Positions 2,011 through 7,874 of a stretch of 16,574 bases of DNA are shown here, in pieces. Numbering within the stretch: the stretch's first letter is position 1; every line of letters starts with the position of its first letter. Source of the stretch: an uncultured Deinococcales bacterium (GTDB lineage: Bacteria > Deinococcota > Deinococci > Deinococcales > JAAFIG01). Made by a program: the position numbers and the translations under genes. The stretch lies in assembly GCA_964244895.1 (NCBI GenBank), contig CAXTKV010000117.1, forward strand, positions 1-16,574, given 5' to 3'. The notes under the pieces are model-generated. The model saw only the letters and a program-made list of their open reading frames with translations, was not told where the DNA came from and ran no database searches.

Positions 2011-2068
2011 GAGCACCGTCCAGCACGCGAATTTACCGGTACTGGCTCTGGCGTGCTGGATGGTGTTC
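2011..2068. repeat. Palindromic repeat family 1 (CACCGTCC...GGACGGTG)
   Basis: GAGCACCGTCCAGCACGC (2011-2028) pairs with GCGTGCTGGATGGTGTTC (2051-2068), with two G-T positions. Confidence 0.85.
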
Positions 2069-2099
2069 TCGATCAAAGCCCGAGGCTCGAGCCTCACCT

Positions 2100-2726
2100 T
2101 CAGGTCGTGAGCACCTCGAAGCTCAGGTTCCAGCACAGGTGAAAAGCCACGCCTGCCCAGAGCGCGCCCGTGCGCTTCCACAACCAACCGGCGACCAGAC
2201 CCACGACCATCACGCCGATGGTGTTCTGCCCGATGGCCGCAATTGACCGACCAAACGTGATCCAGCCCGGAACGTGAATCCCGAGGAACATAACGGAGGC
2301 CATCAGGTTGGCTCGCCAGAACGGGTGATGGCGCGCGAGCATGGGCAGGAGCGCGCCGCGAAAAAGCAGCTCCTCGGGGATGGCAGCCCCGAGCGCCTGC
2401 GACCACCAGTGCGCGAGCGGTGAGGCATCGATGCGCGGGTCGCCGGTGAGCGCCCGGAACAAGAAACTGCCACTAAAATACGCGAACCCCAAACCGAAGC
2501 CGATGCCCAGGCCGCGCGCAGGATGGCGAAAACTCGAGCGCGGCACGAAGCCCAGCGCGGGCAGCACGAAGAACACCAGCTTGAGCGCGATGCCAAAAAA
2601 CTGCGACCACGGTTGACCGAGCTGGCTCTGGAGTGGGTTAAAAAGTACCAACCGAATCACCCACAACGTCAGCACCGCGCCGTACAGCGCGAATGCGAAC
2701 GCTGGATGCGAGATCGAGCGTTGCAT
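2100..2726 (-). CDS. CPBP family intramembrane metalloprotease (CAAX/Abi)
   Basis: Multiple hydrophobic helices. Motifs EELLFRG, FLGIH and HLCWN match the CPBP EExxxR / FxxxH / HxxxN signature. SD GAGGTG at 2736-2731. Confidence 0.92.
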   Translation of the reverse strand: MQRSISHPAFAFALYGAVLTLWVIRLVLFNPLQSQLGQPWSQFFGIALKLVFFVLPALGFVPRSSFRHPARGLGIGFGLGFAYFSGSFLFRALTGDPRIDASPLAHWWSQALGAAIPEELLFRGALLPMLARHHPFWRANLMASVMFLGIHVPGWITFGRSIAAIGQNTIGVMVVGLVAGWLWKRTGALWAGVAFHLCWNLSFEVLTT

Positions 2727-2731
2727 GATTC

Positions 2732-2779
2732 ACCTCGAGTCGGGGACGAAAAGTCGAAGAGATTCGTCAGGCTCGAGGC
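2732..2779 (-). promoter_or_regulatory. SD-sequestering hairpin between the RGPP small ORF and the CPBP gene
   Basis: In the mRNA, GCCUCGAG (2779-2772, within the Pro-Pro-Arg-Ala codons) pairs with CUCGAGGU (2739-2732, containing the SD). Inner stem GACGAA (2768-2763) / UUCGUC (2750-2745). Confidence 0.6.
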
Positions 2780-3081
2780 GGCCCTCTGGCGCGAGCGGTA
2801 TCGGTTCGGGTTTTGGGTGGTCGCCTGAAGGCTGTGGGGAAGCGCGGACTTTCTAGCGGTCGGTGCGGTGGCTCGAGATCGGGTGCGGGTATGGCCTCAA
2901 TGAACAGCGGCTCGAGCGGCTGGCGCGGCGGTATGGCCAGATCGAGGGTGCGTCCGACGTGCGCGGTGTCGGGCTGCGCGTGCGTTTTATGATCGTCGTG
3001 CGCGAAGGCGTCGCTGGTCGCATTGAGCGCCACCAGCGTCAGCGCGCGGATCAACCAGCGTCGCGTTTGGATCTGAATCAC
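2767..3081 (-). CDS. Small exported His-rich protein with C-terminal RGPP motif; candidate ribosome-arrest leader peptide
   Basis: GTG lies exactly 6 nt after TAGAAT (leaderless pattern). N-terminus TRRWLIRALTLVAL...AFA|HDDHKTH is signal-peptide-like, followed by a Pro-rich linker and the ending ARARGPPRA-stop. Confidence 0.7.
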   Translation of the reverse strand: MIQIQTRRWLIRALTLVALNATSDAFAHDDHKTHAQPDTAHVGRTLDLAIPPRQPLEPLFIEAIPAPDLEPPHRPLESPRFPTAFRRPPKTRTDTARARGPPRA

Positions 3082-3087
3082 ATCGGT

Positions 3088-3093
3088 ATTCTA
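3088..3093 (-). promoter_or_regulatory. -10 box TAGAAT, leaderless promoter of the RGPP ORF
   Basis: TAGAAT-accgat-GTG on the minus strand. Confidence 0.7.
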
Positions 3094-3106: not shown

Positions 3107-3156
3107 AGAACACCGTCTGGGACGCGGTTTACAATGCACGTCCCAGACGGTGTTCT
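3107..3156. repeat. Palindromic repeat family 1, directly after the polB stop
   Basis: Perfect 18-bp inverted repeat AGAACACCGTCTGGGACG (3107-3124) / CGTCCCAGACGGTGTTCT (3139-3156). Confidence 0.9.
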
Positions 3157-3157
3157 T

Positions 3158-5497
3158 TCAGGCTGGCGCGTTCGTCTCGAGCTTCGTCCAGCGCACGCGC
3201 AATTCGTGCGTTGGCGCGTCGAACAGGCCTTCTTGCGCGCCGGATTGAAAGACCTGATTGAAGGTCTGATCGTCGAAGGCGAGTTTCAACTTGTGCGCGT
3301 AGACGCGGGTCAGCACGTCGACGTAATGCTGCGCGTCGTAATCGGTGGCGTGCTCCAAGGGGTTGAGGTCTTCCTCGTCGGCGGGCAGGGCGCGCAGCGC
3401 GCCGCCCTGAGCGCGATACCAGCGGATGCGTTCGCCGGGAAGCCAGGTTTTAGCGCTTTGCAGCATGGCCTCGTAGGGCGCTTCGCGCAGCCTGGAGCGG
3501 GATTGCGTGTACGCGTCGTGGGTCTTTTTCAACTTCGCGCGGCTCGAGACATCGCGCGCGCTGAACTGGCGCTCGCGCAATTTGCGCACCGCGTTCAGGT
3601 ACGCCTCGCGCACGCCGGGCGCGTTCCCTTCGAGCGCGGCGCGAACGGCGATCTCGAGGAAACGCTGTCCGAAGGGCTCGAAGCGGCTGGAGCGGAAGGC
3701 CACGCCGCGCAGGATCAGGTCGCCCGTTTGCGTCAGGAGCGCGTAGTTTTTCAAGTCGTGCGAGAGCATCGCGGCGTACAGCGCGTCGAATTCCAGGGTG
3801 ATGCCGTCCGGCAGGCTGTCGCTCAGGGTGTTGACGATAGAGCGCGATCTCGCCTCGTCCCAGTCTTCCGGCACGCTGAAGTACACGCCGTCCGTGTCGG
3901 CCTCGAGCAACCCCACGCCCTGCGCGCGCAGGCCGTCGATCACGGTTTGCAGGATTTCTCGTCCGGTGGCAGTGATGCGGTCGGCGGCGAAGCGATCCGC
4001 GAAGAGCGCCATCCGACCCGCCGCCAGGTAGCCGTAAGCGCTGTTGATGATCAGTTTCATGGCGGCCTGGTTCGCGTCGTGCCGCGCGAATTCGGGATCA
4101 TCCCTGGGCAAGCGTTTGGCGGCGGCCTTGTGCTCCAGGCGCTGGCGGGTCAGTTCGTCCACCAGTTCGATCAGCACGCCCAGTTCGTCGCACGCTGGGC
4201 CGATCTTGTAGGCCCGCATGATGCTCGGGTACAGGCTGGCGATGTCCGCCTTGACGACGCGCCGCGCCAGACCCTGGGCGAACAGATAGAGCGCGCCGCC
4301 CTCGTGGGGCGTCTCGAGGTAGGCGCTCTGACTCTGCGGCAGCGCGCGACCGGCACGGTGGTAGGCGCGCACCAGCATCGGTTCCAGGATGCCGGTCGCC
4401 ATGCCCGCGCTCGAGACGCGCTCATAGCGCCTGGGTGCCAGGCGCGTCAACGCGAAGCTGGCGGGCAGCAATCGCGCGGAGAGCCTGTCCACCTCGCGCA
4501 CGTCCTCTAAGGCGTAGGCCCGCACGCGATCCGGGTTGCGCGCGTACTCCTCGGCGATCTCCGCGCCCGCGATGTACACCCGGTCTTTGGCGGCCAGTCC
4601 GAAGTGCTTGGCGACATCCTTCAATCGGTGGCTGGGCAGTTCTCGGGTCACGAAATCGTGCCGCCAGACGGCGTCCAGCGTGTCGATCAGCTCGCGTCCG
4701 GGAACGCTGAACTTGTCGTTGCGGCCTTCGCGCCGCAGCAATCTGGGCGCGGGGTTCCGCCCGATCTCGAGCCTGATCCCGAGCGCGCTGGCGCGGCCTT
4801 CCAGGAAGGGCAGGTCGAAACCCACCAGGTTGTGGTTCTCTATGACGTCCGGGTCGCGCTGCTGGATGATCCGTACCAGGTCGCGGATGGCCTGGGCTTC
4901 GTCGCGCGGTTCTGGGGCTTCCAGGAGCGCCTCGAAGCCCGTGGAGTCCCGCACGGCGATCAGGATGATGCGAGAATCGCTGGCGCGGAAGCCGGTCGTC
5001 TCGAGGTCGAATTGCAACCGAACCAGATCGCGGTACTCGAGCCCCTTGAAGCAGGTTTTGCCCGTGGCGATCAGGTACTGCTCGGTCAGCCCGAGCGCGT
5101 AGTAATCCTGAAGGTCGTTCAGGCTTCTGGCCTCGCGCCCGTCGCGTTTTGCGCCTTCCATGATGGCGTTTTTGAGGTTCGTCCAGTGGCGGGTCTGAAT
5201 CAGGAATTTGAATATCCCATCCCCAGGAAGTTCCTCGTACGTGAAGGCCGCGTCGGGTTCCGCGCCAGCGAGGGTTTGTGCCTGGAGCCTCGAGCCGACG
5301 TGCCCGAGGTGCGCCAGGTGTTGGGCGTAAACCCACGGCCTGAACTGGTCGCGCTCAGTCCTGATCTGTCCGTTGACGCGCCGCCAGAGGATCGCGTTGC
5401 CGTCACCGTCGGCGTGGACGCTCACCAAACCGGTCGTGTCGTCCCAGCCCTCGAGCCAAGCGCGGCGCGTTTCGGCGTTGGCTGGCTCTGGGCGCAT
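3158..5497 (-). CDS. polB: Family-B DNA polymerase with 3'-5' exonuclease domain (Pol II-like)
   Basis: Exo I FDLETTG, Exo II NHNLVGFDLPFL, Exo III YALED. Pol motif A DIASLYPSIM, motif B KLIINSAYG, motif C ADTDG. C-terminal QEGLF clamp-binding-like motif. Start uncertain (ATG 5497, GTG 5506 or TTG 5515); TATGTT at 5512-5507 favours 5497. Confidence 0.93.
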   Translation of the reverse strand: MRPEPANAETRRAWLEGWDDTTGLVSVHADGDGNAILWRRVNGQIRTERDQFRPWVYAQHLAHLGHVGSRLQAQTLAGAEPDAAFTYEELPGDGIFKFLIQTRHWTNLKNAIMEGAKRDGREARSLNDLQDYYALGLTEQYLIATGKTCFKGLEYRDLVRLQFDLETTGFRASDSRIILIAVRDSTGFEALLEAPEPRDEAQAIRDLVRIIQQRDPDVIENHNLVGFDLPFLEGRASALGIRLEIGRNPAPRLLRREGRNDKFSVPGRELIDTLDAVWRHDFVTRELPSHRLKDVAKHFGLAAKDRVYIAGAEIAEEYARNPDRVRAYALEDVREVDRLSARLLPASFALTRLAPRRYERVSSAGMATGILEPMLVRAYHRAGRALPQSQSAYLETPHEGGALYLFAQGLARRVVKADIASLYPSIMRAYKIGPACDELGVLIELVDELTRQRLEHKAAAKRLPRDDPEFARHDANQAAMKLIINSAYGYLAAGRMALFADRFAADRITATGREILQTVIDGLRAQGVGLLEADTDGVYFSVPEDWDEARSRSIVNTLSDSLPDGITLEFDALYAAMLSHDLKNYALLTQTGDLILRGVAFRSSRFEPFGQRFLEIAVRAALEGNAPGVREAYLNAVRKLRERQFSARDVSSRAKLKKTHDAYTQSRSRLREAPYEAMLQSAKTWLPGERIRWYRAQGGALRALPADEEDLNPLEHATDYDAQHYVDVLTRVYAHKLKLAFDDQTFNQVFQSGAQEGLFDAPTHELRVRWTKLETNAPA

Positions 5498-5635
5498 TTC
5501 GCTCACAACATACAACGTGACTCAGGTTTCACTCAAGGCTGAGGCGGACAGGCGCGACGCGTTCCGCCTCGGGTGGAACGATGTCCCGAGTTCGGGTCTC
5601 GAGATTCCCAGTCTGGCCACGATTACCCTCAAGAA

Positions 5636-6273: not shown

Positions 6274-6489
6274 ATGGACGAACCTCCCAGTCGGACTGAA
6301 CCCTCAGAACCCGACAAACACCGATCCGGCCTCGCGCGCCGGGCGCTTTCATTTGGAAGGTTCGTGCGCCGGACTCGAGAAACCCGCGCGGAAGCTCGAG
6401 AACCCGATCTGGTCGTTCGTGGCGTGACCGATGTCGCCCGGACTGGCGCGTTCCAGACAGGCGCGTTAAGGGGCGCGCTCTTCGAATGA
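6274..6489 (+). CDS. Putative leader peptide (uORF) MDEPPSRTEPSEPD..., 71 aa
   Basis: ATG lies 10 nt after the -10 box. Its stop overlaps the hlyC/corC start in ATGA (6486-6489). Confidence 0.5.
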   Translation: MDEPPSRTEPSEPDKHRSGLARRALSFGRFVRRTRETRAEAREPDLVVRGVTDVARTGAFQTGALRGALFE

Positions 6490-7874
6490 GTGACTTTGTC
6501 GGTTTGCTGGTGCTGTTGTTGTTGATCGTCATGAACGCCTTTTTCGTCGCGGCGGAGTATTCGCTCGTCAGCGTCCGGCGCACGCGCATCGACCAACTGG
6601 TCGATGAGGGTAAAGCCGGAGCCAAACGCGTTCAGGGCGCGCTCAAAAACCTGAGTTTCTACATCGCGGCGGTGCAGCTCGGCATCACGGTCGCGGCGCT
6701 CGCCACGGGTTACGTGGCCGAACCCAGCATCGGGCACCTGCTCGAGGGGCCACTGACCAGCCTGGGGCTTTCACAGAGTACCGTCAAGACGGTCGGTCTG
6801 ATCGCGGCCCTGCTGATTTCCACGGTGCTGAGCGTGATCTTCGCGGAACTCGTGCCGAAATCGATCGCGATTCAGCGCTCCGAACAGACCGCCATGACGC
6901 TGATCTACCCGTTGACGGTTTTCGCCTGGATTTTCGGACCGCTCTCGAGGGGGCTCTCGACCGTCGGCGGCGCGGTCACGCGCTTGTTTGGCGTCAAACC
7001 CGTCGAGGGTCACACGACCGGCTATTCCGAAGAAGAGATTCGCATGATCGTTCAGGCGTCCTCCCAGGAAGGTGTGCTCGAGCAGGACGAGAAAGAGTTG
7101 CTCTACAACGTCTTCGATTTTTCCGACACGACCGCCAAGGCGATCATGACGCCGCGCGTCGACATGATCGGGATTCCGTCGGGCGAGACGCTGCGCGAGT
7201 TGGTCGCGTTGAACGCCGAACACGGCTATTCCAGGTTCCCCGTCTACCGCGAGACGACCGACGACATCATCGGCGTGGCCAACATGGCGGATGTCTTCAA
7301 GCACCTGGCGCGCCTGGACGCGATGAAAGTCGATGGGATCATCCGCCCGACGTACTTCGCGCCCGAAGGCATGAAAGTGATCGACCTCTTTCGCAACATG
7401 CAGACCAAGAAACTCCACATGACCGTGATCGTCGATGAATTCGGCGGCACGGCGGGCGTGGTCACGTTAGAAGACATCCTCGAGGAACTGGTCGGTGAAA
7501 TCTACGACGAGACCGATGACGATGAAGAAGATGGCGTGCAGAAGCTCGAGGACGGCGTCTACATCATGGACGCCAGCTTGAAGGTCGAGGAAGTCGAGGA
7601 GGTTCTGGGCACCGAACTGACCGAGGACGACGACGGCGAGTTCGACACGTTGTCCGGGTTCGTGTACCACCAGTTCGGCTACATCCCGCAGCAGGGCGAG
7701 GAAAGCGAGTACCACGGCTGGATTTTCCACATCGAAACCGCCGACGAGCGCCGCGTCTCGAGCGTGCGCGTTTCCAGGCGTCCCGACCCACTAGAACCCG
7801 GCGATGAACCACCCGAGGAACCCGCGCCCATCGAAACCGAACCCGCCCGCGCCGAAGACCGAGGAGCCGCATGA
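6486..7874 (+). CDS. Hemolysin-family HlyC/CorC (CNNM/DUF21 + 2 CBS + CorC_HlyC) protein, probable Mg2+/Co2+ transporter
   Basis: NAFFVAAEYSLVSVRRTRI, QLGIT, AELVPKSIA, IMTPR, GYSRFPVY, VDEFGGTAGVVTLEDILEELVGEIYDE and FDTLSG. Confidence 0.95.
   Translation: MSDFVGLLVLLLLIVMNAFFVAAEYSLVSVRRTRIDQLVDEGKAGAKRVQGALKNLSFYIAAVQLGITVAALATGYVAEPSIGHLLEGPLTSLGLSQSTVKTVGLIAALLISTVLSVIFAELVPKSIAIQRSEQTAMTLIYPLTVFAWIFGPLSRGLSTVGGAVTRLFGVKPVEGHTTGYSEEEIRMIVQASSQEGVLEQDEKELLYNVFDFSDTTAKAIMTPRVDMIGIPSGETLRELVALNAEHGYSRFPVYRETTDDIIGVANMADVFKHLARLDAMKVDGIIRPTYFAPEGMKVIDLFRNMQTKKLHMTVIVDEFGGTAGVVTLEDILEELVGEIYDETDDDEEDGVQKLEDGVYIMDASLKVEEVEEVLGTELTEDDDGEFDTLSGFVYHQFGYIPQQGEESEYHGWIFHIETADERRVSSVRVSRRPDPLEPGDEPPEEPAPIETEPARAEDRGAA

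Follow-up and report, generated by a model that had tools for sequence, protein, structure and literature searches.

The window analysed here, a stretch of 16,574 nucleotides from an uncultured Deinococcales bacterium, carries on its minus strand a small open reading frame (ORF), hereafter the leader, followed by a gene for an intramembrane protease. The leader, a candidate arrest peptide (2767..3081, minus strand), is 104 aa long, starts with GTG, has no Pfam or NCBIfam match and ends in RARGPPRA-stop, RGPP being residues 99-102 of 104. A 40-nt gap separates its stop from the ATG (2726, minus strand) of the second gene (2100..2726, minus strand), which encodes a 208-aa CPBP (Rce1-like) intramembrane protease matching PF02517 at E 2.3e-17 (63.5 bits where the cut-off is 22.4). 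The protease residues E118-E119-x3-R123, F147-x3-H151 and H196-x3-N200 are intact and invariant in three of three aligned homologues; we take them to be the EExxxR, FxxxH and HxxxN motifs of CPBP proteases. The two genes are bracketed by two REP-like hairpins, one a 20-bp inverted repeat (3107..3156, minus strand; -38.7 kcal/mol, z -7.8) between a polB-family gene and the leader, which may shield the leader from transcription arriving from upstream, the other a degenerate hairpin 3' of the CPBP stop (2011..2070, minus strand; -30.2 kcal/mol, z -4.7), which is likely to be the end of the leader-CPBP two-gene unit. The palindrome core of these elements, AACACCGTC, has 2314 copies in the genome, 9 of them in the window, with many similar copies on other contigs; further intergenic copies in the window lie at 5635, 8288 and 9921. 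The neighbours of the unit are the polB-family gene and an aminotransferase gene. The former (3158-5515, minus strand) encodes a 785-aa family B DNA polymerase with an exonuclease domain and is present in 18 of the 19 genomes of the family, and the genes downstream of its orthologue differ among relatives. For sequencing runs, one of DNA and none of RNA turned up. An assembled 208-base contig from the DNA run matches 2650-2857 with one difference; it possibly stems from the source sample itself and was not counted as evidence.

The leader appears to be expressed from a leaderless promoter. A -10 box, TAGAAT (3088..3093, minus strand), lies 6 nt 5' of the GTG, a layout matching the leaderless, -10-only promoters known from Deinococcus deserti (PMC4007540), and a sigma-70 scan at the leader returned no full -35/-10 match. 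Among 2387 coding-like frames of the genome, the TAnnnT-to-start distance peaks at 6 (164 ATG and 162 GTG starts), compared with 3-46 counts before GTG at other distances, and only 1160 of the 266,924 ATG/GTG triplets genome-wide have a TAnnnT at this spacing. Since the leader's TAGAAT is the sole TAnnnT between 3200 and 2700 on the minus strand, the CPBP gene is without a leaderless promoter of its own. The sequence-only reading, which had described a 104-aa leaderless ORF 40 nt before the CPBP start, was right in the length of the ORF, in its distance from the CPBP start and in the RARGPPRA ending. An out-of-frame ATG-TGA start-stop (3083-3078, minus strand) overlaps the leader GTG and could be a rival initiation site if transcription begins two bases earlier.

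The codon score of the leader is coding-like for codons 1-50 (+0.18) and non-coding-like for codons 51-104 (-0.21), and the score of the whole (-0.02) falls in the 1st-5th percentile of real genes, just above the 99th percentile of their off-frames. The C-terminal half thus lends some weight to the idea that the ORF is a chance or decayed one, a small secreted protein or a gene remnant in which RGPP and the CTCGAG hairpin described below arose by accident, which we hold to be unlikely. The low score is in itself not disqualifying, because the DUF2946-like leader of the same genome scores low too (-0.12).

Residues 1-27 of the leader (3001..3081, minus strand), which begin with RRWLIRALTLVAL and end in AFA, form a weakly hydrophobic, signal-peptide-like segment (best 11-residue hydropathy 1.95) with an Arg-bearing start, TRRWLIR, and AFA at residues 25-27; as judged from hydropathy rather than SignalP, the signal is weak. 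The twin Arg of TRRWLI fits the Tat pattern, RR-x-[FGAVML]-[LITMVF], which occurs in 7 of 195 leaderless signal-like starts, and TatC is present in the genome. Tat export takes place after translation, and a twin-arginine interpretation, as earlier suggested, is weak because lepB leaders with a similar signal (see below) have no twin Arg. The signal-like segment is followed by a His-containing one (H28, H31, H34 and H41; 2959..3000, minus strand) with a putative metal role, so that TRRWLIR, AFA and the His residues are all present as first noticed. Overall the peptide contains 16 Pro, no Cys and no internal Met.

The His residues raise the question of whether the leader could sense a metal through ribosome arrest, as CutF/CruR leaders do, the His residues behind the cleavage site binding the metal and so altering stalling and protease synthesis. 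Four His fall within residues 28-41, the first right after AFA, and His-only metal sites have been proposed for leaders of Streptomyces lividans (PMC12992588). In addition, DUF2946 and CzcI are among the named language-model neighbours of the leader, which include SecM_small and DUF6769 as well, at 0.90-0.92, and which persist when the last 12 residues are removed (CzcI being added then); the shared features, 70-120 of 256, are below the usual same-family level and come from a single source, and we treat them as a lead only. The DUF2946 (CruR/CutF) family is, however, defined by a CxxC about 45 residues before RAPP and by PF11162 (PMC9426467), and the leader has neither Cys nor internal Met and gives no DUF2946 match at E<=1, whereas the leader of the YcnI/CopC cluster of the same genome does match at E 5e-4. 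Moreover, the unit adjoins a polymerase and an aminotransferase gene with no metal gene nearby, and a His directly after the AxA site is also found in the genome's own lepB leader. With no CxxC, no DUF2946 match and no metal gene, the metal-sensing part of the sequence-only reading is weak, and we regard it as quite unlikely.

The RGPP codons, R99-P102 (2776..2787, minus strand), agree with what has been published on RAPP/RGPP arrest. In that class, the first Pro occupies the P site and the second Pro the A site of the stalled ribosome (PMC12992588), which here would be P101 and P102, and more than 30 residues separate signal and motif (PMC10987492); the leader has 71 residues between A27 and R99, with R[AG]PP near the C-terminus. 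Its layout is likewise that of the class, a small unannotated ORF without family match directly 5' of a gene on the same strand. RGPP has been reported to give the strongest arrest in several contexts (ApcA, ApdA, ApdP, SecM), and all seven C-terminal RAPP/RGPP proteins of S. lividans tested stalled, although a RAPP-like motif by itself does not suffice for arrest (PMC12992588). In the present genome, 668 leaderless ORFs of 60-250 aa include two ending in R[AG]PP and none ending in A[AG]PP. Both fall within a subset of 140, comprising those small leaderless ORFs that begin hydrophobic and are free of overlap with called genes, in which 0.17 would be expected; 11 permuted motifs gave four matches in the same 140 ORFs, three of them overlaps within the same two tails. 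RGPP is also depleted in the coding frames of the genome (one observed versus 22.9 expected; 3 versus 19.0 in a second gene set), and other Pro-Pro motifs are somewhat depleted too (AGPP, 11 versus 30.1 in the second set). That a single ORF combines the promoter spacing with a signal-like start, the motif, its position and a hairpin argues against a chance origin, 0.065 such cases being expected among the 60 ORFs that share the other features. Of the two R[AG]PP-ending ORFs among the 140, one lies before CPBP and the other before lepB.

[quoted passage not shown] It is predicted to be occluded in a hairpin (2731..2780, minus strand) with an outer stem, 2780-2772/2739-2731, and an inner stem, 2768-2763/2750-2745: the MFE and centroid structures alike show GCCUCGAG (2779-2772) paired with CUCGAGGU (2739-2732), as well as GACGAA paired with UUCGUC, and thus recover the two stems originally proposed. 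The 5' arm of the outer stem, 2780-2772, consists of codons P101-P102-R103, and the 3' arm covers the SD. The predicted cost of opening the SD is 9.5 kcal/mol in the free RNA and 4.0, 7.3 and 6.5 kcal/mol with modelled stall footprints of 12, 15 and 18 nt, respectively. In 48 control gene pairs on the same strand with an SD-like site, a cost of at least 9.5 kcal/mol occurred once, and a stall-dependent drop as large was found in none with the 12-nt and in one with the 15-nt footprint; counted over the whole ribosome-binding site (RBS), the corresponding numbers for cost, 12-nt drop and 15-nt drop are 3, 1 and 7 of 48. The cost left after the 15-nt footprint, 7.3 kcal/mol, is still reached by only four of the 48. 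A second anti-SD, CUUCGA (2754..2759, minus strand), lies in the hairpin loop; when the ribosome covers the 5' arm, it is expected to pair with 2738-2733, and the opening of the switch is therefore predicted to be partial. Of the hairpin switch as first drawn, the occlusion of the SD has stood as rare among controls (1/48), but the opening is predicted to be partial owing to this second anti-SD, which had been overlooked.

Some properties of the hairpin would fit an accidental origin. The early caution that CTCGAG is very common was justified, the genome having 21,883 copies (a density of 4.3 per kb), of which 74 fall in the window, and 7 of 48 control pairs carrying it twice no more than 60 nt from the ATG; the fold z-score depends on the sequence window taken, -2.3 for 61 nt and -1.3 for 86 nt. 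It could also be that the leader is a real arrest leader which acts not by SD opening but on transcription termination or mRNA stability, in the way of CruR, or through constitutive coupling. The SD stays partly paired with the second anti-SD after the modelled stall, and CruR itself works through Rho-dependent termination (PMC9426467). Against this, the arm that pairs with the SD is exactly that of the P- and A-site codons, the drop in SD cost exceeds that of 47-48 of the 48 controls and the two genes are only 40 nt apart, and we find such an output very unlikely. A last option is a peptide-plus-protease pair in which the neighbouring CPBP protease has the leader as its exported substrate or signal peptide and stalling plays no part, as might be suggested by a signal-like start adjoining an intramembrane peptidase gene and by the protease matching sortase-like CPBP models weakly, in no case above the cut-off. 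Since the leader has no C-terminal membrane segment, and the RGPP motif and the SD hairpin would be left without explanation, we judge this to be highly improbable.

Within the data searched, the leader-CPBP pairing is an orphan of a single genome. In 41 genomes, a search for leader homologues gave ten weak non-self matches (E 0.01-0.09), all rejected as chance on inspection, being glutamine-synthetase-like frames and off-frames. A search of 5.8 billion sequences returned no leader homologue, and the leader ORF itself was also absent from the results; the single match in a search of 1.84 billion was rejected as a repetitive artefact. The protein collection contains four close homologues of the protease (one at 84%, the others at about 67%), whose DNA was found in neither of two genome scans. 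Among 364 genomes of the phylum only this window contained the CPBP at E<=1e-6, a metagenome scan for CPBP loci found a single relative (36%), which has no frame ending in RAPP/RGPP, and a plasmid search gave 11 distant records. Among the PF02517 loci of the 19 family genomes, 45 of which have at least 450 upstream bases, an R[AG]PP leader occurs at 1 of 52, the one described here; genome G010 contains a 50-residue CPBP-like fragment without leader. The region after the polB orthologue, surveyed at 16 loci of relatives (one of only 357 bases), contained no such leader. That the leader is an orphan in all homologue searches, and confined to one of 52 CPBP loci, is what would be expected of a chance ORF.

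The second leaderless R[AG]PP ORF of the genome (G000:C116:1917-2279, minus strand, = L015:1917-2279) lies directly 5' of two signal peptidase I genes, both matching PF10502 and the first also TIGR02227. Orthologous leaders precede lepB in 18 of the 19 family genomes (L018-L033, L049, L052, L053 and L059), the one miss being a genome that is 79% complete, and one copy is without its N-terminal part in frame; outside the family, none was found below E 9e-4 in 345 genomes of the phylum. In the protein collection, 78 homologues end in LAPP (41), RAPP (33), TAPP (2) or HAPP (1) or are truncated (1), and 44 of the 78 have an FDA[L/T/Q]APP core that is not known to have been described. The lepB leaders are 104-132 aa long, mostly of leaderless layout, with a W-x-x-R-x-L signal and an xAPP end. 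In genera g2 and g4, base pairing is predicted between the codons of the RAPP region and the lepB SD, and a modelled stall lowers the SD cost in five of six g2/g4 loci and hardly changes it in g5. The lepB leader is a stronger candidate than the CPBP leader, and the better test case. Its LAPP variant runs counter to the Arg reported to be irreplaceable in ApcA, ApdA and ApdP. In VemP, release from arrest follows signal cleavage (PMC11470409), and a leader over lepB could by analogy give direct feedback on signal peptidase activity.

The CPBP leader resembles the lepB leaders in that both have an xAPP-type end, the W-x-x-R-x-L register and a membrane peptidase gene downstream, with the arrest codons predicted to pair with the SD in several lepB members too. 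They differ in that the lepB leader is kept in 18 of 19 genomes and the CPBP leader is an orphan, and in that the motif is RAPP/LAPP rather than RGPP, and homology between them is not established. The register shared with the g4 lepB leaders comprises W9, L10, R12, L14, L16, A18, A25 and A27. When 137 leaderless signal-like N-termini were ranked against a lepB-leader profile, with the motif outside the alignment, the CPBP leader came first; the margin is small (26.1 versus 23.0, or 24.7 versus 23.4 without the genome's own lepB member), yet this rank against an independently conserved family speaks against a chance ORF. A HMM of 14 lepB leaders did not list the CPBP leader at E<=50, and one of 77 sequences aligned it end to end in HMMER, PP on PP, at E 0.89, which places it third among 56,290 frames, the secDF leader described below ranking higher. 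Profile comparison by hhalign gave a probability of 20-30%, and shuffled sequences scored as well as the CPBP leader in 0 of 2000 cases for the full length and 76 of 2000 when only the middle was shuffled. A W-x-x-R pattern occurs in 2 of 195 leaderless signal-like starts, but having been drawn up with knowledge of the leader it was not counted as a test. From this weak likeness, it is possible that the CPBP leader is kin to the lepB leaders; it may be a diverged copy of a lepB-family leader or convergent with it, and the common signal pattern may be a general trait of leaders in the lineage.

Further leaders of similar design are present in the genome. One such ORF, of about 105 aa and with a signal, lies before secDF (G000:C273:266-658, plus strand, = L108:266-658) and ends in LQLDGG, and counterparts (L114, L117-L119, L121, L122, L124 and L125) bring the total to 9 of 17 secDF loci, with endings (R)LQLDGG-stop, LKTDGG-stop or LQIEGA-stop; with the same filter none was seen in genus g5 or genome G007. 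On its sequence, it is a candidate arrest peptide with a motif other than RAPP, and among the literature entries listed none described a secDF leader with an LQLDGG-type ending. The DUF2946-like leader mentioned above (G000:C91:11883-12326, minus strand, = L016:884-1327; CPLC, His-rich, RAPPP), whose E of 5e-4 lies just under the cut-off, precedes a DUF1775/YcnI gene together with several CopC/CopD-like genes and is an ordinary CutF/CruR-type copper leader. Another leaderless ORF, of 93 aa (G000:C3, plus strand, about 6287-6568), begins hydrophobic and has TAPP close to its end, with no gene called downstream on the same strand. The lepB, DUF2946-like and secDF leaders together indicate that this lineage makes use of leaders combining a signal with an arrest-type end.

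Small upstream ORFs ending in RAPP/RGPP are widespread before diverse genes, including those of the RQH family and orphans (PMC12992588, PMC10987492); what relieves the stall in cases other than Sec/YidC and copper is left as a question in PMC12992588. The leader shares with the ORFs described by Fujiwara et al. the small size, spacer of more than 30 residues, C-terminal RGPP and downstream gene on the same strand, along with a putative N-terminal export signal, and differs in having a CPBP protease gene downstream and a leaderless start. With the monitors ApdA, ApdP and SecM it has in common a putative cleavable-type signal, a RAPP-like core and a predicted SD-occluding stem that overlaps the stall site (PMC7897499, PMC10987492). 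Those leaders, however, control secDF or secA, the genes expected downstream in this group being secA, secDF or yidC, whereas here a PF02517 gene follows; nor has the leader a sequence family match to them, SecM_small being only a language-model neighbour (0.90-0.91, 120 of 256 shared features). Like CutF/CruR (DUF2946, PF11162), it is a leader with a signal-like start and a Pro-rich arrest-type end, and CutF opens an RBS-shielding stem (10.1101/2025.02.05.636593); unlike them, it has no CxxC, no PF11162 match (E<=1) and no copper gene downstream, and CruR acts via Rho. The background cited in the sequence-only reading needs correction in that ApcA ends in RAPG (PMC12992588) and CruR does not work by SD opening but through Rho, but the SD-shielding stem holds, having been described for CutF (10.1101/2025.02.05.636593) and SecM (PMC10987492). 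Peptidases are absent from the top-30 list of RAPP partners, and CPBP, CAAX and signal peptidase from the portions of the supplement text searched (PMC12992588, PMC10987492). The claim that no arrest peptide has been described upstream of a CPBP gene agrees with the literature entries listed and the supplement text searched, among which none was found before CPBP or lepB; the full RGPP ORF table and Appendix of PMC12992588 may hold such cases. The class of arrest leaders is known, a CPBP or lepB partner was not found described, and the leader is a probable member of the class.

Given an export-like start, an RGPP end and a hairpin-hidden CPBP RBS, the leader likely stalls its own ribosome to switch on the protease. 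A leaderless two-gene mRNA would begin at the leader GTG, and the ribosome would stall with its P site at P101 and its A site at P102, covering the 5' arm of the hairpin (2780-2767) and lowering the SD-opening cost from 9.5 to 4.0-7.3 kcal/mol. The signal peptide, lying 73 residues upstream, would be outside the exit tunnel during the stall, and Sec export would pull on it and free the ribosome, so that slow export or signal-peptide processing would lengthen the stall and more protease would be made. All arrest readings taken together, a working arrest leader is what we probably have before us; the specific reading, an export-monitoring RAPP/RGPP-class leader whose stall at Pro-Pro loosens the CPBP SD hairpin, has in our estimation about an even chance of being correct. 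As to the original proposal of an arrest leader coupled to the CPBP SD, the motif enrichment, the hairpin controls and the lepB parallel are in its favour, and the predicted partial opening tells against it.

A leader of this kind before a CPBP protease gene would tie nascent-chain sensing to membrane proteolysis and give a hint of what this little-understood family of proteases does. One could go further and suppose that the arrest-leader family of this lineage monitors signal-peptide processing, an ancestral copy setting the level of lepB and a diverged RGPP duplicate having come to lie before CPBP, an idea that we put forward as an unlikely one. If true, the CPBP protease would be an inducible back-up or clean-up peptidase for conditions in which exported precursors jam the membrane, and nascent-chain monitoring would extend from the translocon to the membrane peptidases.
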